Below are positions 44,489 through 54,897 of a DNA stretch of 64,000 bases, one piece after another. The notes under the pieces are model-generated. The model did not search any database. It saw nothing but the letters and a program-made list of their open reading frames with translations, and had not been told where the DNA came from. Within the stretch, counting starts at the first letter, position 1; every line of letters starts with the position of its first letter. Source of the DNA: Vicinamibacterales bacterium (GTDB lineage Bacteria > Acidobacteriota > Vicinamibacteria > Vicinamibacterales > JAMQPK01). The translations under genes were made by a program, and so were the position numbers. Location: assembly GCA_963832375.1 (NCBI GenBank), contig CAWHUA010000008.1, positions 1,008,133 through 1,072,132 of the forward strand, read 5' to 3'.

Positions 44489-44523
44489 TTGCCCGTTGCT
44501 ATTGAGAATGGTATTTTGATGGT
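44489..44523 (+). promoter_or_regulatory. sigma70 promoter of TA operon (leaderless)
   Basis: TTGCCC-17-TATTTT, 6 nt before GTG 44524. Confidence 0.5.
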
Positions 44524-44778
44524 GTGAAATCTACCATCGACAAGGCAGGCCGGGTCGTGATTCCGGCGGCCCTGCGCGAGCGGGCCGGCCTGACGCCTGG
44601 ATCGGAGCTCGACATCACGGAAGACGAGCTCGGCATTCACCTCAGGCGTGTCGCGCCAGGTCCTCGCCTCGTCAAAGTCGGCCGCCGTCTTGTCGCGCGA
44701 CCGACCGCTGCCGCAACCGAGCGTCCCCGCGTCGACATCGCGTCGCTCATCGAAGAAGAGCGCAACCGCTGGCCGTGA
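44524..44778 (+). CDS. AbrB/MazE/SpoVT-family antitoxin
   Basis: TIDKAGRVVIPAALRERAGLTPG. Confidence 0.92.
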   Translation: MKSTIDKAGRVVIPAALRERAGLTPGSELDITEDELGIHLRRVAPGPRLVKVGRRLVARPTAAATERPRVDIASLIEEERNRWP

Positions 44779-45242
44779 TGGTGTTCCTCGACACGAGCGT
44801 GCTTCTGGCCGGGCTCGTCGATTTCGGCCCGCAAAGCGCGCCCGCGCAGTCGGTGATGCACGCCGTCGCCGAAAAGCGTGTCAACGAGGTCGGCACGGCG
44901 TGGCACTGCTGCCTGGAATTTTTTTCCGTCGCGACCAGACTGCCGGCCGAGTTTCGCCTGACGCCAGCCGATGCCGCGCGGCTGCTCCAGGAAGAGGTGT
45001 TCTCGAGATTGGCCGTTCACGATCTGCCGTCGAACGATCGCGGGGCCATGCTGCAGGCCGCGGGCCGCGACGGCGTCGCAGGCGGCCGAATCTACGATTC
45101 CCACATTGCTGAGGTTGCCCGCGCCGCGGGCGCGACCGTCGTCGTCACCGACAATCGCCGCCATTTCGTGAGTGCGCTTCGCTACGGGATGAAGGTGGAA
45201 ACGCCTGCGGAGTTTCTTGCGGTTTTGAAGAAGCCAAAGTGA
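44775..45242 (+). CDS. vapC: PIN-domain toxin
   Basis: VFLDTSVL, LEFFSV, IYDSHIA, VVTDNRRHF. Confidence 0.9.
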   Translation: MMVFLDTSVLLAGLVDFGPQSAPAQSVMHAVAEKRVNEVGTAWHCCLEFFSVATRLPAEFRLTPADAARLLQEEVFSRLAVHDLPSNDRGAMLQAAGRDGVAGGRIYDSHIAEVARAAGATVVVTDNRRHFVSALRYGMKVETPAEFLAVLKKPK

Positions 45243-45410: not shown

Positions 45411-47142
45411 ACGCGGCTTCGATTCGGCCTCTTAACGCCGACAGCTCGGCGCTCAGATTGACGAGCTCGGCCTCTGTCGTTTCGAGCTTTTCTCCTTCAG
45501 CCCGCACGAAGCGACTGTACGGCGCGATGCTCGTGCGGATGCGATCGGACGCCCGCGCGATCTCCTTTTGGAACTGCGTCCGCAGGGCATCGCCGAGACG
45601 TTGCCGCACCTCCGCAATCTTCCGGCGCATCTCTTCCTTGCCCTTCTTCCGTTTGGCGGGAATGACGAAGAACCCGATGGTCGCAATCAGAGAGGCCATG
45701 ACCAGCCCGGTGACGTCGGCGGCCGCGGTCGAGGCGGCGACAGTGACAATCGCGCCGAGGCCGACGGCCCCTGCCCCGACAGCCGCCGCGGTGGCCACGG
45801 CATTGCGCGCACCATCGGCCAGATCGCTCGCCTCCTTCTGACGATCGTATCCATCCACGACGCGTTGTGCCTCGCGTCCGACGGAATCGATCATCCGGCG
45901 TCGGTCGAAATGGAAGCGCTCGGTGTCGGGGTTGTCGATAATCGCGCCCGCATATTGCTGGCGGCGTTTCGCCAGGTGCGCCGTCACCCCCTGCCAGTGC
46001 CGCAGATCGGCATCAATCATCCAGTCAATCAGCTCGCCGACCTTTCGATCGATCTGCTGCGGCGCATCGGCCACGACCTGGCGGCTGAAGGCCTCCTGAA
46101 CCCGGCTGCGATTCAACAGGTCCATCACCCGGCCGATGCGCATCGTGTCGTCGAAAAACATATGCCCGCGGCGCTCCATCTCGAGCAGCACGTTCTCGAC
46201 GTCGGCGATGCGCAGCCCGAAGTCGCGCTCCATGTCGCGCTGGTAAATGGCCAGCTGGTTTTCGACCTGTTCCAGCGTCGCGAAGTCGTCCTTCAGAAGC
46301 GCGCGGCGGTCGCGCACCGACGCGAGCTGTCGCGCAGCGACCGACGCGGCCACGCCGAGCGGGTTCAGCAGCTTGAGCTGCGCGCGGCCCGACGCATTCA
46401 GAGACGTCGACACATAGTTCTCGAGCGCCTCGAATCCGCTCGCCGCCCATACCGATGGCTCTCCTCGTTTCGCTCGAAGCGCCAGCTTCGAGCTGACGAA
46501 AAAGATGTCGGGCTCGAAGCCCAGCAGCGAACGCGCATTGCCGGCCACAAACGCCCGTATCTCGGACACCTGCGCCGGTCCTTCGAGAATGTCGCTTTTG
46601 TTCACGACAACGACAATTTTTTTGCCCCAGCCGCGAATGTGATCCATGAAGGCACGCTCGGTCTCGGTAAACGGACGATCCGCCGAGGTGACGAAGAACA
46701 CCAGATCGGATCGCGGAATGAACTCGGCGGTCATCGTCTCGTGCTCGCGAATGATGGCGTTGGTGCCCGGCGTGTCGACGATGCGAATCTCACGAAGCAG
46801 ATCGACCGGCGCCTTGATCACGAGCAGGTTTGCCTCGCGCACGGTTTGTTCGGCCGTTTCGCCATGCTCGAGCAGGGTGATCACGGCTGTGGTCGGCGTC
46901 ACGCCTTCCAGCATGAGCGGCTGGCCAACAAGCGCGTTGATGAATGCGCTCTTTCCGGCGTTGAATTCGCCGACAACGACGAGCAGGAACAGCTCGTCCA
47001 GTTGTGCGATGGACCGTTCGAGGGCCTGCTGCTGATCTGCGCTGGCGTCAGTACGCGCGAGCGACGCGCGGAGGCGCACGAGCACTCTCCGTTCCTCCCG
47101 GAGGAGCGCATCCTGTGTGGCTGAGAGAACGCGTGTCAGCAT
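45409..47142 (-). CDS. Bacterial dynamin-like GTPase with C-terminal hydrophobic hairpin
   Basis: G1 GEFNAGKS, G2 TPTT, G3 DTPG, G4 NKSD; coiled coil; two hydrophobic segments. Confidence 0.9.
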   Translation of the reverse strand: MLTRVLSATQDALLREERRVLVRLRASLARTDASADQQQALERSIAQLDELFLLVVVGEFNAGKSAFINALVGQPLMLEGVTPTTAVITLLEHGETAEQTVREANLLVIKAPVDLLREIRIVDTPGTNAIIREHETMTAEFIPRSDLVFFVTSADRPFTETERAFMDHIRGWGKKIVVVVNKSDILEGPAQVSEIRAFVAGNARSLLGFEPDIFFVSSKLALRAKRGEPSVWAASGFEALENYVSTSLNASGRAQLKLLNPLGVAASVAARQLASVRDRRALLKDDFATLEQVENQLAIYQRDMERDFGLRIADVENVLLEMERRGHMFFDDTMRIGRVMDLLNRSRVQEAFSRQVVADAPQQIDRKVGELIDWMIDADLRHWQGVTAHLAKRRQQYAGAIIDNPDTERFHFDRRRMIDSVGREAQRVVDGYDRQKEASDLADGARNAVATAAAVGAGAVGLGAIVTVAASTAAADVTGLVMASLIATIGFFVIPAKRKKGKEEMRRKIAEVRQRLGDALRTQFQKEIARASDRIRTSIAPYSRFVRAEGEKLETTEAELVNLSAELSALRGRIEAA

Positions 47143-47206: not shown

Positions 47207-48142
47207 CTATTCATTGAGGCGCCCAATCAAGGTCAGCAGCGCTCGATACGCCTGCGCCATGGCGCGCGGCTCGGCGAGCGACGGCGTATCGGCAGCGGTG
47301 TGAATGGTTCGCAGAACCTCGGGCATAAAACCCTGCGCCAACCCCGATTCCTTGCCCCCGTTGATAAGAAGCAGGAGCTGGTGTGCCTGCAGTTCGGGAA
47401 TCGCCGCGATAGACAACGTGGGAATCCCTGCCTTCTGAAAGCTCAAGTCGTCGCTCGGCGGCATCGTCGGAAATTCGACGCAGGCGCGAACCACTTCGAC
47501 GCAGGTTGCCCGCATCGCCTGGAAGAGGGCGTCGTTGGCGGTCGAGCGCGGCCCGAAGATGAGTGTGTCGCCGAAGGCGTTGACGTCGAGGTTCACCATC
47601 GCGCGTGTCTTCCGATCGCGGTGGTCCTGCGCGTATCTGGCCGACCCGAGCAGCCCCAGCTCTTCCATGTCGAAGAAGACGATGCGCACCTGGCTCGCCG
47701 GGCGCGTCTTCTGCCACGTTTCCGCCAGCCGGACCAGAATCAGAACGGACGCAGCGTTGTCGACGGCCCCTTTGCTGAGGGTGCCATCCTGTAACCGCAC
47801 GGCGTCGTAATGCGCGCCGATGACGATCTCGGGTTCCCGTCCTCGAATAGTGATGACGACGTTGCGGCCCTCGGTGCGCGACTCGGTCTTGCGCGGCTCG
47901 ATCGTGAACGGCTCGACCTCGAAGGAGATGCCGCGGGCTTTGAGCATCCCGGAGAGCGCATCGAACCGCGCCTCGTTCGACGATTGCCCCAGGCGCGCCA
48001 GATCGTCGGCGGCGGTTGCGAACAGCTGCTCGGCAACGGGCGCAGACACCACGGGCGCGGTGCGGGCCGCACAAGCTGACGCGGCGAAGAGGCCAAGAGA
48101 CAGAGCTAAAGCTCTGTGCCACCGAACTCCACGAACCATCAT
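47207..48142 (-). CDS. M28 family peptidase (lipoprotein)
   Basis: IGAHYD, GAVDNAAS, DMEELGLLGS, NLD, SDD, IHTAADT; ATGA overlap with upstream gene. Confidence 0.9.
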   Translation of the reverse strand: MMVRGVRWHRALALSLGLFAASACAARTAPVVSAPVAEQLFATAADDLARLGQSSNEARFDALSGMLKARGISFEVEPFTIEPRKTESRTEGRNVVITIRGREPEIVIGAHYDAVRLQDGTLSKGAVDNAASVLILVRLAETWQKTRPASQVRIVFFDMEELGLLGSARYAQDHRDRKTRAMVNLDVNAFGDTLIFGPRSTANDALFQAMRATCVEVVRACVEFPTMPPSDDLSFQKAGIPTLSIAAIPELQAHQLLLLINGGKESGLAQGFMPEVLRTIHTAADTPSLAEPRAMAQAYRALLTLIGRLNE

Positions 48143-48745
48143 GATCGGTATGGTATTTCCCCGAACATCGGCAGCCCCGCGGCCTTGATGATGTCGGTCA
48201 GGCCCTGACGAGTGTGAAATTCCATCCCGTCCCGGTTGACGACGACCGTGTTGGGATAGCCGGGCGCCAGCCGGCGGAACTCGGCGTCGATCAGGCGGAA
48301 ACGCCGCACCATGTTTTCGGCAGCCTCGTGCGGGCGGTTGCGCAGCCTGATGTGCTTTTCGATCGTGTCCACGCTCGACGTCAGCACGATGACCTTCTCG
48401 GGATTCCACCAGTCGCCGATCGACAGCACCTCGCTGAAGGGCCGGATGGTCCTGGGCTGGGTACTCGGCCATGTGCGCTTCGAGCGTGATGCGCGCCCCC
48501 TCGAAGAAGATCACCCGGTCGGGCCGGTCGTGCTCGGCCGCGTCGCGGTAGTTCGCGTCGTAGATGCGGGCGAAATACTCGGTGACGCCCACCGCGTTCC
48601 GGCCGGCGGCGATGTCTTCGAGCATGCGGCGGTCCCACACGCCCTCCTCGCCCTCTCCGTAGGTGCCGTTGTGATAGAGGTCGCCAAGCTGGCGAATCAG
48701 CGTGCTCTTGCCGATTCCGGGGCCTCCGACGATGGCGACACGCAT
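48139..48745 (-). CDS. P-loop kinase, deoxynucleoside/thymidylate-kinase-like; one frameshift near 48430
   Basis: MRVAIVGGPGIGKSTL, VIFFEG, PEKVIVL..IRLRNRPHE lid (ORF 48139..48429 supplies the C-terminus). Confidence 0.75.
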
Positions 48746-50794
48746 CAGATATCGACGCTCACGACGCTCGTGACTTCCTCGACGGTCGTCAGTCCCTCGG
48801 CGAGCAGCCAGGCGGCGTAGCGCTTGAGATCGATCATCCCCTCCTCGACGGCCGCCGCGTGAATCTCTTCGGAGCGGGCGCCGTCGCCGACGAGCGCGCG
48901 AAGACGGGGCGTCATCTTCATCACCTCGTAGATGCCCGACGCGGCCTCTTCACGCCCTTGCCGCCGCAGCTGCGTGCAGCCCCGCCCCTCGTAGATCGTC
49001 GTGCCTTCCGGCAGCCCGAAGAACCGCGCGATGTTCGCATCGGCCGGATAGGGCTCCTTGCACTCCTGGCACAGCCGCCGCGCCAGCCGCTGCGCGATGA
49101 CGCCGATCGTCGACGACGACACGAGGAACGGCTCGACGTCCATTTCCTGGAGCCGCGTGAACGCGACCGCGGCGCTGTTGGTGTGGAGCGTCGTAAAGAC
49201 GAGATGGCCCGTCAGCGCGGCTTCGACGGCGGTGTGCGCGGTCTCCTTGTCGCGCGTCTCGCCCACGAGCAGCACGTCCGGATCCTGGCGCAGAAACGCG
49301 CGCAGCACGCTGGCGAACGTCAGGCCGATGGCGGTGTTCACCTGAATCTGCGTGACGCCGGGCAGGTCGTACTCGATCGGATCTTCGGCGGTCGAGATGT
49401 TCACGCCGGGATCGTTGATTTCCGCCAGCGCGGAATACAGCGTCGTCGTCTTGCCCGATCCGGTCGGCCCGGTCACGTAGATGATGCCGTAGGGCTGCTG
49501 GATCATCTCGCGCACGAGCGCCAGCGACGGCGGCATGCGATGATCAGCTTGTCGAGGCCGAGCGTGGTGTTCGACCTGTCGAGGATGCGCATGCACGACC
49601 TTCTCGCCCCACTTGCCCGGCACGGTCGACACGCGGAAGTCGATCGGCTTGCCGTCCATGCGTCACGCTGATGCGGCCGTCCTGCGGCAGCCGCTTCTCG
49701 GCGATGTCGAGCTGGCTGAGAATCTTGAACCGCGAGATCAGGCCCAGCTGCACGCGCTTCGGCAGCTTCTGCACGACCTGCAGCACGCCGTCGATCCGGA
49801 AGCGCACGGTGACGTCCCCTTCCATCGGCTCGATGTGGATGTCGCTCGCTCCCCTGCTTGATGGCGAGGCCGAGGATCGAGTTGGCCAGCCGGATGATGG
49901 GCGCGTCTTCCGACGCGCTCATCAGATCCTGCTTGGTTTCGGCCTTCGGCTCGTCGGTGTCGGCCGCCAGCTGCAGCTCGCGGATCAGATCCGACTGGAG
50001 CAGATCCACACCGCCAGGCGCGGCCGGCTTTGCGCCGGCCGCAGGCGCGCCCGGCGCGCGGGCGGGCGCCGGCTTCGTGCGGCGGGAGCCCCGTCGTTGT
50101 CCTGCGCCATCAGCTGCGGGTAGGTCGTGTCATGAAGCGCTTGAAGTCGTCCTCGGTCACGACCGCCGGCTCGATCAGCACGCCCTTGAGGACCCGGCGC
50201 ACATCGTCGAACGCGACGATGTTGTTCGGATTGGTCATCGCCAGCGTCAGCCGGTTGTTGGCAAACGCGATCGGGACGACCTTGTGCTCGTTGACGATGG
50301 CCGGCGGCAGCAGCGTGAGGACGCGCGGATCGATCTTCACGCGCGACAGGTTGACGAAGTCGACGCCGATGTGACGGTTCGCCGCGTCGAGACGCTCGGC
50401 CAGCGCCGCCATCATGCGCCCGCGCGGCCGCCGGGATGCTCGGCGAGCAGCTGATCGAAGTCCGCCTGCTCGAGGATGCGCGCAGGTCGTCGCCTCGAGC
50501 GCGACGACCGATGGCGGTGCGCGGCTTCCCCGTGAGCAGCGCCATCTCGCCGAACATCTGTCCCTCGCCGAGCTCGGCGAGCAGGAACTCGATGCCGGAG
50601 TCCGGATCCTTGCGGCGGACGGCCACCGGCCCGATAGGACGATGAAAGCCGAGTCGTCGGCGGCTGCCCTCTCGGACGATGACCGAGCGGGGCGCGAACT
50701 CGCGGCGACGCATCCGGTGCTCGAGACGCGCGAGCGCATCGGATGAGACCTCGGTGAAGAGCGGCAGGCGACCGAGCGATGCGCCGGAATTCAT
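48745..50794 (-). CDS. cNMP-binding domain fused to PilB/GspE-type ATPase (several frameshifts)
   Basis: FGEMALLTGKPRTA phosphate-binding cassette; LTLAMTNP T2SSE N domain; SDIHIEP, RFRIDG, GPTGSGKTT, TAEDPIE, LRQDPD, TGHLVFTTLHTN, CQEC. Confidence 0.85.
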
Positions 50795-50832
50795 CGATGC
50801 GCGCATCTTACAACAGCAAACTCGCGTATCAT

Positions 50833-52790
50833 GTGAGCGACGATGAATCAACCGATCACTCGACGCGATCTGCACACGACGTCGGGGACGCCTGGACCAC
50901 GGTCGACGCCGCCGAGCTCTACGAGATTGCCCGCTGGGGTCAGGGCTACTTTTCAATCGGCGAAAACGGTCACGTCAAAATCCACCCGACGAAAGAGCCG
51001 CACCGCTCGATCGATCTGAAGCAGCTGGTCGACCATCTGCAGCTGCGCGGCATCAGCCTGCCGACGCTCGTGCGATTCCGCGACATCCTCCAGCACCGGC
51101 TGCAGGACATCCACGAGGCCTTTCAGGCGGCCATCACGCAGCACGAATACACGCGGCAATTACATCTGCGTCTATCCGATCAAGGTGAACCAGCAGCGCC
51201 AGGTCGTCGAGGAGGTCTTCAATTTCGGCAAGCCGTTCAAGTTCGGCCTCGAGGCCGGCTCGAAGCCCGAGCTGCATCGCGGTGGTCTCGATCGCCGACA
51301 ACGACACGCCGATCATCTGCAACGGCTTCAAGGACGCCGAGTTCATCGAGCTGGCCATGCTGGCGCAGAAGATCGGCCGGAAGATCATCCCGGTCGTCGA
51401 GAAATACACCGAGCTCGACCTCATTCTCGAGCATGCCGAGCGGATCGGCGTGCGGCCCGAACATCGGCATGCGCGTCAAGCTCGCCGCCCGCGGCGGCGG
51501 TCGCTGGCAGTCGTCGGGCGGCTACCGCTCGAAGTTCGGCCTGACGGTCGCCGAGATTCTGCAGGGCCTCAAAGAGCTGAAGACCCGCGGCATGGAAGAC
51601 TGCTTCCAGCTGCTCCACTTCCACCTCGGCAGCCAGATTCCGAACATCCGCATCGTCAAAGGCGCGCTCAACGAAGCGGCCCGCGTTTACGTCGAGCTCG
51701 CGCAGGCCGGCGCCGGCCTGAAATACATGGACGTCGGCGGCGGGCTGGGCGTCGACTACGACGGCTCGCAGACCAACTTCGAGTCGAGCGTCAACTACAC
51801 GCTGCAGGAATACGCCAACGACGTCGTCTATCACCTGCAGACGGTGTGCGACGAGGCCAAGGTGCCGCACCCGACCATCATCTCGGAGAGCGGACGGGCG
51901 ATCGTCGCGCATCACAGCCTGCTGGTGTTCAACGTGCTCGGGCGCGATCGGGATTCGGCACGACGAAGTGCCGACGCGCAGCGACCCCGGAAATGGAGCG
52001 GCCGCTCGTCGACCTGATCGAGACCTACAGCAGCCTGACGACCCGCAACGCGCTCGAGAGCTACCACGACGCCCAGCAGGCGCTCGACATGGCGATCAAC
52101 CTGTTCTCGACCGGCTATCTGCCGCTCGAGCAGCGGTCGCAGGCCGAGAGTCTCTACTGGGCGATCTGCATGAAGCTGCAGAAGCTGGTCAAGACGATGG
52201 AAGAGGTGCCGGAAGACCTGCAGCACCTCGACGAGTCGCTGTCGGACACCTACTTCTGCAACTTCTCGCTGTTCCAGTCGGTGCCCGACAGCTGGGCGAT
52301 CAAGCAGCTGTTCCCGGTGATGCCGATTCACCGGCTCAACGAGCAGCCGACGCGGCACGCCGTGCTCGGCGACATCACCTGCGACTCGGACGGCAAGATC
52401 GATCAGTTCATCGATCGCCGCGACGTGCGCCGCACGCTGCCGCTGCACGCGTTCAACGGCGTCGCCGTACTACCTCGGCGTGTTCCTGGTCGGCGCCTAT
52501 CAGGAAATTCTGGGAGACCTGCACAACCTCTACGGCGACACGCACGCCGTCCACGTGAGCCTCGATGCCGACAACGACGTCGTCCTCGATGCGGTCATCA
52601 AGGGGGACACGGTGCGCGAAGTGCTGAAGTACGTGCAGTTCGACGGCGAGGCGCTCATCAGCGAAGCTGCGCGCCGACGTCGAAGCCGCCGTGCGCGACG
52701 GCCGGCTCGACTACGAAGAGTCAGGCCGGCTGCTGCCGTTCTTCGAAGAAGGGCTGCACGGGTACACGTACCTGGAAGAGCAGAGAGTGA
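50833..52790 (+). CDS. speA: Biosynthetic arginine decarboxylase (several frameshifts)
   Basis: [65 protein letters not shown]. Confidence 0.93.
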
Positions 52791-52796
52791 GGGGCT

Positions 52797-52840
52797 TCGC
52801 ACGTATTCGCAGATTCGGCAGATTGGTGGATTGGTGGATT
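52797..52840. repeat. 8-bp degenerate repeats (CAGATTCG/GGATTGGT)
   Basis: Between convergent genes. Confidence 0.5.
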
Positions 52841-53661
52841 ACGAGCCGCCAGTCTGCGACTGCCGCCACCGTTACCGCGCCGGCTGAGAGAGCATGGCAC
52901 CTTCCTGAACATCTCGGCGCGCAGCGGGAGGATGAACGAGAACCGGTAGTCGGCCTCCATCCGGCCGATCGGAATACCGACGAGATTCCCTTCCTGATTC
53001 AGCACTCCCCCACCCGACACGCCCGGATGCCCGTCGGTTAACGACGTGACGAGGCCATCCGCCGTCCGCTGACCGATGTAGCCGGTGCTCAGGATGATGC
53101 CCTTCGAGTAGTCGTTGCCGAGACGGAAGATCGGATCGGCGAACGCGTACGTGTAGCTCATGTCGAGGGTCAACGGCGGCAGGTCGATCGTCGTCGCACC
53201 TTGATGATGGCCCAGTCGCCTGGATGGACTTCCGCAGTCGGCGGTGCCGCTGTCGACGACCGTCGCCGCAAGCGACTCACCCTTGTAGAGCAGCCGCACC
53301 GATGTCGTCTGCTGCTGGTTGTTCGGTCAGCGGCATCACGCCGTGTTTCACGGTGATGAAGTATCCGTTGCCGAGGTAACCGGCGGTGCTGTACCGCATC
53401 GCGCCGAACTCGTCGTAGGCGTTCACCTCGACGAAGCTGTTGCGCCGGTCGCGCAGCATGCTGATCGGCATCAGTCCCATCTCGCTGCGACAGGTGTGCG
53501 TGACTCGGTCAGCAGTGGCGTTCTGCGCGTCGATGGCCTCGGCGATTCGACGTCTCGAGACGGCGCTGCGAATACCAGGCGCCCAGCGAGAAGCTGGAGG
53601 CGGCCAGGCAAAATGCCAGCATATAGACGAGTAACACACGTCGACGTCGGCTCAAGCGCAT
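52839..53661 (-). CDS. Trypsin-like (S1) serine protease with N-terminal anchor, frameshifted
   Basis: MRLSRRRRVLLVYMLAF; FITVKHGV; GHPGVSGGGVLN..LVGI. Confidence 0.75.
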
Positions 53662-53877
53662 AGCGCTCTCAGCTCCGCCGTGAGGGGCCGAGGCCCATCA
53701 CGATAAGATTGTTAGGAGTGGCAGGGATACCCGAACGCTCATGGACAGCGCGCGGGCAGTAATCAAGAGTAGGGAGGACCACCGGATAAGTCAAGGGCTG
53801 TCACAAAATTACCCAGCAATTCATGACTTGATGGTGCAAAAGGGACACGTTCCGGGTTCCGGTCGCCCGGGTTCCTC

Positions 53878-53965
53878 ACAGAAGATCAGAAGACCAGGAG
53901 GCCTTTTGATCCTTAGATCTCTCGATCTTTAGATCTCTCGATCTCCTGGCCTTCTGATCCTCTGT
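53878..53965. repeat. 23-bp inverted repeat enclosing 8-bp tandem repeats (TTAGATCT/CTCGATCT); probable terminator
   Basis: ACAGAAGATCAGAAGACCAGGAG ... CTCCTGGCCTTCTGATCCTCTGT. Confidence 0.7.
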
Positions 53966-53973
53966 TTCGGCCC

Positions 53974-54897
53974 CTATTTGATCTCGTCGAAGATGACCTG
54001 CGCGTTCGAACGCAGGCGCGCTTCCTGGACATCGGCATAACCCTGGAACTTGGCCGGCTGCTTCCAGGTCTTCACGACCTCTTCCACGCCCTGACCGCCC
54101 TTCTTGGCCGCCCGCATGGCATCGGCGAATTCGCGGTTGAACGTGGCGTATTCCATCAGCTCGGTCATGTTCATGTTGACGCTGTGACCGGTGACGACCG
54201 TATCGGCCACCTTGCTGAACGTGCTCTGCGCCTTGGCAATGGTGTCGCCGATCTCGAGACCGCTGCCGCCGTTGTTGGCGTCGAGCAGCGGCAGGTTCTT
54301 GCCCGAGACGATGTCGCCCGCGGAAACCACGCGCAGCGCCGGGAAGAGCACCCACGCGTCGCCGTTGGTGTGGCCGCGGCCGAAGTAGTAGAGATCGATC
54401 TGGTCCGGCCCTGTGCCGATCGTCATCCGATCCTTGAAGGTGCGCTTCGGAAGACCCTTTCCGCCATTCTGCTCGAAGATATTGGTCGGCGGCGGCGCGC
54501 CGGGCTTGCTGATCCCGGTGACGGCGCGCATCTGCTTCATGTTGGTCGCGGTGTTCTCCTGCACCACGATGTCGACCGTCGTCGGGAACTCGACGTTGCC
54601 GCTCACGTGGTCGCCGTGCGTATGCGTGTTGATGATGGTCGTGATGGTCTTGGGGCTCAGCTCCTTGATCTTCGCCAGAATCGGCGCGCCCCATCCCGGG
54701 TTCTTCGTGTCGACGACGCTGATGCCGTTGGACTGCACGAACACGGTCGTGTTGCCGCCACCGCCCTTCAGCACGAACAGGTTCTCTTTCAATTTCTCGA
54801 CTTCGACCACCATGGGCTTCTGCCCACCCTGCTGTGCAGCGACGTAGGTCATCGCGCCGACAGCGACCAGGGACGTGAGAAGAACGATGCGCTTCAT
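53974..54897 (-). CDS. Secreted MBL-fold metallo-hydrolase
   Basis: THTHGDH, GHTNGD, AGD, VTGH; ATGA overlap with upstream gene. Confidence 0.93.
   Translation of the reverse strand: MKRIVLLTSLVAVGAMTYVAAQQGGQKPMVVEVEKLKENLFVLKGGGGNTTVFVQSNGISVVDTKNPGWGAPILAKIKELSPKTITTIINTHTHGDHVSGNVEFPTTVDIVVQENTATNMKQMRAVTGISKPGAPPPTNIFEQNGGKGLPKRTFKDRMTIGTGPDQIDLYYFGRGHTNGDAWVLFPALRVVSAGDIVSGKNLPLLDANNGGSGLEIGDTIAKAQSTFSKVADTVVTGHSVNMNMTELMEYATFNREFADAMRAAKKGGQGVEEVVKTWKQPAKFQGYADVQEARLRSNAQVIFDEIK

Follow-up and report, generated by a model that had tools for sequence, protein, structure and literature searches.

The locus described here raises the question of whether a motor ATPase of the PilB/GspE type may be controlled by a cyclic nucleotide that binds to the motor protein itself. 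The window (the whole stretch of DNA that was analysed, 64,000 nucleotides of contig CAWHUA010000008.1 of a Vicinamibacterales bacterium) carries on its minus strand, at positions 48745-50794, a gene that encodes one real protein, in which a sensor for cyclic nucleoside monophosphates (cNMP) is followed by an N1E-type domain and by a PilB/GspE-type ATPase. In the excerpt of Wang et al. 2016 (PMC5013675), MshE and the PilB proteins that bear an MshEN domain are ATPases of type IV pili and type II secretion systems (T2SS) gated by cyclic di-GMP (c-di-GMP). A reading of the window made from its letters alone (hereafter the sequence-only reading) had proposed that in the present protein a cyclic-nucleotide-binding (CNB) domain replaces the MshEN sensor, and that the product is a pilus or secretion motor switched directly by cAMP or cGMP. 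From the evidence given below we favour, tentatively, a stand-alone hexameric cNMP-gated motor ATPase whose partner would be encoded elsewhere in the genome.

Is the gene a single coding unit? In the window it is scattered over all three frames, and the sequence-only reading had joined the pieces by correcting frameshifts. Intact orthologs from three relatives of the same genus (678, 680 and 677 amino acids) carry all three domains and confirm this joining; the order in the protein of about 680 amino acids is cNMP_binding (PF00027), PF05157 (N1E, or "MshEN") and T2SSE ATPase (PF00437). In the intact ortholog P0001, Pfam places cNMP_binding at residues 29-117 (E 6.6e-21; 74.5 bits, cut-off 27.5), PF05157 at residues 141-226 (E 6.6e-17; 61.7 bits, cut-off 23.1) and T2SSE at residues 292-671 (E 3e-126; 421.5 bits, cut-off 24.9); a second intact protein, P0002, gives 6e-20, 9.8e-17 and 5.4e-125 for the same profiles, and in both proteins the three matches lie above cut-off on one open reading frame (ORF). 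When five frame pieces of the window were scanned, PF05157 (E 7.8e-17) and T2SSE (in two pieces, E 5.2e-85 and 7.9e-13, with 285.8 and 48.2 bits) were recovered, one piece had no Pfam match, and cNMP_binding (E 4e-6) scored 27.1 bits, just below its cut-off of 27.5, because the domain is split by the frame breaks. The ATG at 50794 and the stop at 48745-48747 give exact bounds for the gene, in which the following features are recognized:

48745..50794, minus strand: whole gene of the cNMP-sensor PilB/GspE-type ATPase, stop included; about 680 amino acids when read through, with 16 single-base insertions or deletions (indels)
50377..50794, minus strand: CNB domain and its C-helix (ortholog residues 1-137); PF00027 at E 6.6e-21 in P0001, and a beta-barrel plus helix 119-137 in the model
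50509..50554, minus strand: phosphate-binding cassette F-G-E-M-A-L-L-T-x-K-P-R-T-A-S (ortholog residues 80-94), from the family alignment
50111..50367, minus strand: N1E-type domain, PF05157 (ortholog residues 141-226); E 7.8e-17 in the window piece and 6.6e-17 in P0001
49941..50098, minus strand: low-complexity linker rich in Ala and Pro (ortholog residues 231-283); predicted local distance difference test (pLDDT) below 50 at 231-262 and 279-283
48769..49916, minus strand: T2SSE ATPase core, N2 and C-terminal domain (ortholog residues 292-671); PF00437 at E 3e-126
49447..49470, minus strand: Walker A, GPTGSGKT; K445 in 105 of 109 family members
49372..49386, minus strand: Asp box, EDPIE, from the family alignment
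49249..49284, minus strand: Walker B with the catalytic Glu, DPDxLLVGETRD; E509 in 105 of 109
49180..49212, minus strand: His box, TGHLVFTTLHT, from the family alignment
48966..49071, minus strand: region of the tetracysteine (CxxC ... CxxC) zinc site; each Cys in 108 of 109, and an insertion near 48974 breaks the second CxxC in the window

Why is the window copy broken? Against the three intact orthologs, a nucleotide alignment places 16 indels of one base in the window alone, 13 of them insertions and 3 deletions, and they lie in a delimited tract:

48000..54000, strand not applicable: poor-consensus patch, which holds 52 of the 65 frameshifting indels seen over about 20 kb in comparison with the nearest relative (locus L013)

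This patch breaks the ATPase gene, the neighbouring AAA_28-like gene, speA and the next gene; its flanks are clean, including a dynamin-like gene of 577 codons, and DNA identity to the nearest relative is 91% in the patch versus about 96% in the flanks. The 52 events are 39 insertions, mostly of G or C, and 13 deletions, a single one of them falls in a homopolymer of at least 4, and the 4-mers ATGC and TGCG are enriched around them. An unpolished or mixed-strain consensus and a motif-linked basecalling error are the candidate causes. In contigs of relatives (other strains, from four public runs) the sequence differs from the window at no fewer than 10 of the 16 indel places. If the 16 indels were real, the window copy would be a true pseudogene, an explanation to which the density of single-base indels (16 in 2 kb) lends itself, for which no same-strain reads were found that contradict the indels, and with which the patchy presence of the gene (8 of 24 genomes of the genus, 6 of 401 in a sample of the phylum) agrees, since such a gene is dispensable. 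It is opposed by the pattern of substitution: with the indels set aside, differences from the nearest ortholog number 39, 15 and 122 at first, second and third codon positions, 113 codon changes are synonymous and 48 nonsynonymous, 628 of 676 residues agree and no in-frame stop occurs, and this third-position excess without stops indicates purifying selection. All 23 key residues checked through ortholog-guided codons are kept, the damage extends to speA and the AAA_28-like gene between clean flanks, and the preponderance of inserted G or C outside homopolymers looks like a consensus artefact. A pseudogene is therefore very improbable. Since the indels belong to a 6-kb patch of local damage in which speA is broken too, the comparison of sequences makes it highly probable that the frame breaks are assembly errors and that the organism carries an intact gene. 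A true stop between the cNMP and ATPase parts would have contradicted the sequence-only reading; none is present, as judged on the ortholog-guided frame.

Is the sensor equipped to bind a cyclic nucleotide? Conservation was counted in an alignment of 109 family members that are 23-97% identical to P0001. Within the cassette, G81 and E82 occur in 109 of 109 members, A93 in 108 and R91 in 107, and all four are kept in the window, so that the cassette of CRP/PKA type that had been recognized by eye is indeed intact; position 92 is T in 74 members, A in 14 and S in 11. The closest sequence matches of the sensor are cGMP- and cAMP-binding domains, among them the CNB domain of PKG (69 bits). By Foldseek, the N-terminal part is most similar to the cAMP receptors MtbCRP and GlxR, to CNB-B of PKG and to MloK1; the model compared here covered only the N-terminal part (6 sequences, pLDDT 65) and served for fold matching alone, the full-length model being better. 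The protein thus has the fold and the phosphate-binding cassette of the CRP/GlxR receptors and of the CNB domains of PKG, PKA and MloK1; in contrast to them, its output is a motor ATPase and not a DNA-binding domain, a kinase or a channel. The genome itself has four class III cyclase domains and 12 cNMP_binding matches, which makes a cyclic-nucleotide messenger plausible.

CRP/FNR-type folds bind other effectors in some proteins of the CRP/FNR family, and the CNB fold could in the same way bind another ligand, or act only as a structural or dimerisation module, an explanation that is compatible with any of the other readings. The variability of cassette position 92 would fit it, as would the misfit of one of two PROSITE-type CNB signatures, which were compared by eye in a rough check. 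However, the ribose phosphate is held by Gly-Glu and Arg-[Thr/Ser/Ala]-Ala residues that hardly vary, a PROSITE-type cassette pattern fits 98 of the 109 members in an equally rough check, and the best sequence matches are to cGMP- and cAMP-binding domains; we consider this explanation unlikely.

Does the protein retain a c-di-GMP sensor in addition? The excerpt of Wang et al. 2016 (PMC5013675) defines MshEN by two 24-residue motifs and also gives a relaxed pattern. The tandem motif RLGxx(L/V/I)(L/V/I)xxG(L/V/I)(L/V/I)xxxxLxxxLxxQ, strict or relaxed, was found in none of the three orthologs and in none of the 120 best-listed homologs. The CNB C-helix (119-137 in the model) and the PF05157 match (141-226) lie only about 3-4 residues apart, so there is also no space for a four-helix bundle. 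PF05157 goes by the name 'MshEN' in current Pfam, so the domain is formally present, and its match covers the N1E-type half only; what is missing, to judge from the sequence, is the N-terminal four-helix half that binds c-di-GMP. The proposed absence of MshEN consequently stands for the c-di-GMP motif and does not stand for the Pfam domain. The proposed position of the sensor is also borne out: in the canonical PilB of a relative (genome G024), MshEN-like helices with one relaxed motif lie directly before N1, the place taken by the CNB domain in the studied ATPase. The accompanying statement that PilB and MshE usually begin with an RLGxxL motif was too strong, given that the c-di-GMP motif was not found in two paralogs of G024, one GspE-like and one adjacent to a PAS kinase, and that a review, in the excerpt at hand (PMC10124867), reports MshEN domains of Synechocystis without the fully conserved motif. 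The likeness to MshE of Vibrio cholerae and to MshEN-bearing PilB therefore lies in the layout, i.e. a second-messenger sensor placed directly ahead of an N1-type PF05157 domain and a PilB/GspE core, and in the proposed action of a small nucleotide on the motor itself. The studied ATPase differs in that its sensor is a CNB beta-barrel with a cassette and not a four-helix tandem of 24-residue motifs, in that its ligand is presumably cAMP or cGMP, in the lack of MSHA or pilus genes nearby, and in belonging to a separate clade.

The motor part is a member of the PilB/GspE superfamily (PF00437) by profile score, by its motor motifs and by the fold of N2 and the C-terminal domain. Walker A, the Asp box, Walker B, the His box and the four Cys are conserved in at least 100 of the 109 members (His-box H527 and H534 in 102 and 101), which upholds the earlier identification of these boxes and of a CxxC; there are in fact two CxxC pairs, the second disrupted in the window by an inserted base. 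Over the full length, the AlphaFold model averages a pLDDT of 85.9; its linker at 231-283 is disordered. Among PilB and PilF proteins of known structure (M. xanthus 3jc8, G. metallireducens 5tsg/5tsh, T. thermophilus 5oiu), the core has 47-49% identity and a template modelling score (TMt) of 0.92-0.94, with Foldseek giving TMt 0.92 for 5tsh (G. metallireducens PilB, 49% identity) and TMt 0.94 for 5oiu (T. thermophilus PilF); M. xanthus PilB is the best sequence match (430.7 bits, about 430), GspE follows with 405.6 bits, and all the motor motifs and the zinc site of PilB are present. Unlike PilB and PilF, the studied ATPase scores below the cut-off of TIGR02538, is not beside pilT, pilC or pilM and has a different N-terminus, and the organism has a separate canonical PilB in a pilB-pilT-pilC-pilSR cluster. 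With GspE/EpsE (V. vulnificus 4pht; V. cholerae 1p9w, 4ksr) it shares N1E, N2E and CTE over 514 columns, at 40% identity to V. vulnificus GspE in complex with GspL (4pht), as well as the tetracysteine site; N1 aligns with the GspE N1E domain that binds GspL in that complex. It departs from GspE/EpsE in scoring below the cut-off of TIGR02533, in having no gspF, gspL, gspM or gspD nearby and in its extra CNB domain. A hexameric state and ATP hydrolysis are predicted.

How widely is this architecture distributed? When 40 relatives were searched with one window piece, 8 of the 24 that share the genus matched strongly (E 5e-29 to 5e-70), three of the eight with uninterrupted frames; the remaining 16 come each from another genus of the order, and matches there, where there were any, did not go beyond the N1 level. 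With residues 1-290 as query, at least 689 proteins pass E 0.001 among 8000 candidates scored, and the best 120 of the 689 all have cNMP_binding, PF05157 and T2SSE. Databases list them under generic names ('type IV pilus assembly protein PilB'; 'ATPase, T2SS/T4P/T4SS family'), and a protein atlas applies the automatic cluster name 'Cyclic nucleotide-binding/MshEN domain-containing protein' (scores 0.88-0.92), which was taken as a lead only. A library-wide search returned 90 representatives at E <=1e-30, and 23 of the 24 full-length diverged proteins picked (23-88% identity) carry all three domains. The CNB+N1 module, counted where the match reaches at least query residue 223, is present in 34 of the 80 loci kept from named genomes; cassette, Walker A and His box share a single frame in 23 of 32 independent loci, the other nine being at contig ends, frameshifted or outside the search patterns. 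The carriers, all of them metagenome-assembled genomes (MAGs), belong to Vicinamibacterales, Terriglobia, 'Acidiferrales', Syntrophorhabdaceae, Syntrophus, other 'Deltaproteobacteria' and one Myxococcales. Across the phylum, where the sequence-only reading had suggested a search, the gene was found in 6 of 401 evenly drawn genomes and 4 of 228 genera. The literature, subscription journals and supplements being outside the scope of the search, gave no description of a CNB domain fused to a PilB/GspE ATPase, so that the architecture does not appear to have been characterised before.

In an IQ-TREE phylogeny, 30 of 30 sampled cNMP-bearing ATPases fall on one side of a branch (ultrafast bootstrap, UFBoot, 90; Shimodaira-Hasegawa-like approximate likelihood ratio test, SH-aLRT, 96; 91% of bootstrap trees). 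Because they form one clade, apart from the PilB and GspE-like paralogs, the fusion looks old and single, and the word 'replacing', if it is taken to mean a recent swap of sensors, is not sustained. The node that joins this clade to the PilB and the GspE-like ATPase of G024 and to two other orphans is a polytomy, and the long branches P0165, P0242 and CpaF were flagged. Four loci in the collection (L016, L017, L025 and L042) come from MAGs titled Bifidobacteriaceae, Alphaproteobacteria and Acidimicrobiia, with genes 62-85% identical over residues 1-290; L017 and L042 lie within the Vicinamibacterales branch of the tree, L016 and L025 have the Vicinamibacterales gene order, and the taxonomic labels of the four bins are probably wrong. 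Terriglobia-type ATPases have N-terminal extensions of about 100-260 amino acids before the CNB domain (952 amino acids in L052; a zinc ribbon in L020).

On what would such a motor act? The family is conserved, unstudied and never found beside pilus genes in the loci examined. The orphan position had been noticed from the lack of pilin, PilC and secretin genes in the window; in agreement, 56 further frames scanned across the window contain no pilin, T2SSF or secretin family, and none of 37 related loci has pilin, secretin or platform genes within 8-10 kb, in a screen that used one tblastn query per family and is of limited sensitivity. Pfam on 52 ORFs of five distant loci gave no pilus or secretion family, no association with pilT, pilC or pilM was seen in the window or in the 37 loci, and the same holds for gspF, gspL, gspM and gspD in the window and for the GspF and GspM queries in the 37 loci. 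Elsewhere in its own genome there are the pilB-pilT-pilC-pilSR cluster on contig 3, a GspE-GspF-GspM cluster 600 kb off on contig 8, a Tad cluster, and three PilB/GspE-like ATPases without an adjoining platform gene, the studied one included. At C8:1257222-1258367 and C2:475255-476410 (L037, L038) lie orphan ATPases, one beside a PAS-PAS histidine kinase and the other next to a DnaJ-domain gene and not far from a GGDEF gene.

The immediate neighbours vary with the lineage. In close Vicinamibacterales, speA is divergent, 48 bp upstream of the ATPase gene, and an AAA_28-like gene, an M28 peptidase gene and a gene for a dynamin-like GTPase follow downstream in this order:

48145..48745, minus strand: AAA_28-like P-loop gene, 202 amino acids; its ATG overlaps the stop of the ATPase gene (TGATG); conservation confined to close Vicinamibacterales relatives
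47213-48124, minus strand: M28 peptidase, order kept in close relatives
45412-47142, minus strand: bacterial dynamin-like GTPase, intact, 577 amino acids, order kept in close relatives

Among relatives the AAA_28-like gene is 90-94% identical, a higher conservation than that of the ATPase, and NCBIfam gives no match for it. A single frameshift interrupts it in the window, and in L013 and L022 it is split as well. The GTPase match is absent in L014 and L018, and the M28 match in L023. An IS630-type element (DDE_3 + HTH_Tnp_IS630) occupies positions 12887-13871 of L012, the locus of G024, between the AAA_28 and M28 genes, and because of it these two genes need not be co-transcribed. Two ORFs first listed as conserved neighbours, 'unk231' and 'unk315', were rejected as Arg-rich frames without a family that are probably not genes; a PIN-domain frame at 44520-45239 on the plus strand of the window overlaps one Arg-rich minus-strand ORF that had been taken for a conserved neighbour.

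In 12 loci of Syntrophorhabdaceae and other 'delta' genomes, a single strand carries genes for a MoxR/MadB-like AAA protein, a VWA (CoxE-like) protein, UppS in 6 of them, the ATPase and DedA/VTT, and BacA is on the opposite strand in 3. The loci recorded with this array are L024, L026, L058-L061 and L063-L069, and three of the array families (DedA/VTT, UppS and BacA) belong to undecaprenyl-phosphate metabolism. In 12 loci of Terriglobia type (L020, L048-L054, L056, L057, L071 and L072), a BadF/BadG/NagK-like ATPase of the actin fold, about 400 amino acids long, lies 3' of the cNMP-ATPase gene, and a GalT-like gene is divergent upstream in 5. Since the neighbour changes with the lineage, none is a family-wide partner.

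This organization allows a different view, in which the protein would be a cNMP-gated ATPase outside pilus and secretion systems that works with lineage-specific co-transcribed neighbours, or as a signalling switch by its nucleotide state, in envelope or membrane processes. The lack of a platform gene nearby in all 37 loci speaks for it, together with the one-strand array and BacA of the 'delta' loci, the BadF/BadG/NagK-like ATPase next to the gene in the Terriglobia-type loci, and the AAA_28 gene that overlaps the stop in the group of the window, followed by the M28 peptidase and the dynamin-like GTPase; moreover, M. xanthus PilB, in an excerpt of PMC5544727, is reported to signal in the control of exopolysaccharide (EPS) independently of pilus assembly. 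Nevertheless, the neighbour differs by lineage and none is family-wide, synteny within a lineage can be inherited without a functional link, the protein retains its N1E-type docking domain and every motor motif, and in G024 the IS630 element stands between the AAA_28 and M28 genes. Taken together, we regard a role of this kind as the main rival, though less probable than the reading that we favour. Its more specific form, that the clade is a cNMP-gated PilB-fold ATPase recruited to homeostasis of the cell envelope or membrane and not a pilus or secretion motor, is suggested by three sets of neighbours: DedA/VTT, UppS and BacA, of undecaprenyl-phosphate carrier metabolism; a sugar kinase of the NagK/BadF type together with a GalT-like enzyme; and, in the lineage of the window, the AAA_28 kinase-like protein, the M28 peptidase and the dynamin-like membrane GTPase. 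We hold this form to be distinctly improbable.

The stand-alone hexameric cNMP-gated motor with a partner encoded elsewhere remains the explanation that we prefer, although as a whole chain it falls somewhat short of being probable. Under this proposal, cAMP or cGMP made by class III cyclases would bind the conserved phosphate-binding cassette, and binding would shift the C-helix, which continues straight into N1. Docking of N1 to a membrane partner, or the cycle of the hexamer, may then be altered, so that the ATP-driven work would be gated by the messenger. The partner would be a platform of the PilM/PilC or GspL/GspF type, of a type IV pilus or T2SS-like system, elsewhere in the genome; such a distant platform is probable because only the three domains of the protein itself are constant across the family. 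What the data show is the architecture, the conserved ligand-binding and catalytic residues, the fold, the orphan position and frame breaks that are private to this assembly; that a ligand binds, that it gates the motor and which partner is served we infer. The type IVa pilus and T2SS-like clusters of the genome include T2SSF, and in each of the five complete carrier genomes that were tested two or more T2SSF-type genes lie elsewhere, which is compatible with a distant platform.

Several points weigh against this proposal. T2SSF is probably near-universal in the phylum, and its presence in the five carriers does not discriminate for that reason. A platform gene (GspF or GspM, tblastn with queries from the own genome) or a second T2SSE gene was found in 0 of 37 related loci, 510,525 bases in all, and the lineage-specific neighbours (DedA, the BadF/BadG-type ATPase, AAA_28) might be the real partners. 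The NCBIfam equivalogs are not reached, with 545.4 bits for PilB TIGR02538 (cut-off 675.65) and 555.1 bits for GspE TIGR02533 (cut-off 630.25). With these scores, and with pilus genes never found beside it, a role in driving a pilus or secretion machine stays conjectural, as does the swappable alternative motor suggested in the sequence-only reading. The choice between cAMP and cGMP, or another ligand, cannot be read from the sequence, in which cassette position 92 is variable. Finally, no public run comes from the same strain (best share of sampled words 0.10), so the frameshifts are not directly disproved.

The practical value of the finding is limited, because all carriers found are uncultured MAGs and the window copy is damaged by assembly errors. 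Its interest lies in the control of the motor: for c-di-GMP it is established that a small messenger acts directly on PilB/GspE-type motors, by way of MshEN, and the known control of pili by cAMP or cGMP is transcriptional or indirect. If the proposal is true, a second messenger would be added to the post-translational control of these motors, with a cAMP/cGMP sensor wired into the docking domain, and the protein would offer a simple test system of one protein, one ligand and an ATPase read-out. The strict separation from pilus genes raises the question of what role orphan PilB-like ATPases, of which there are three in this genome, may have. If the role in the envelope were instead the true one, the motor fold of type IV filaments would have been re-used for another membrane task under the direct control of cAMP or cGMP.

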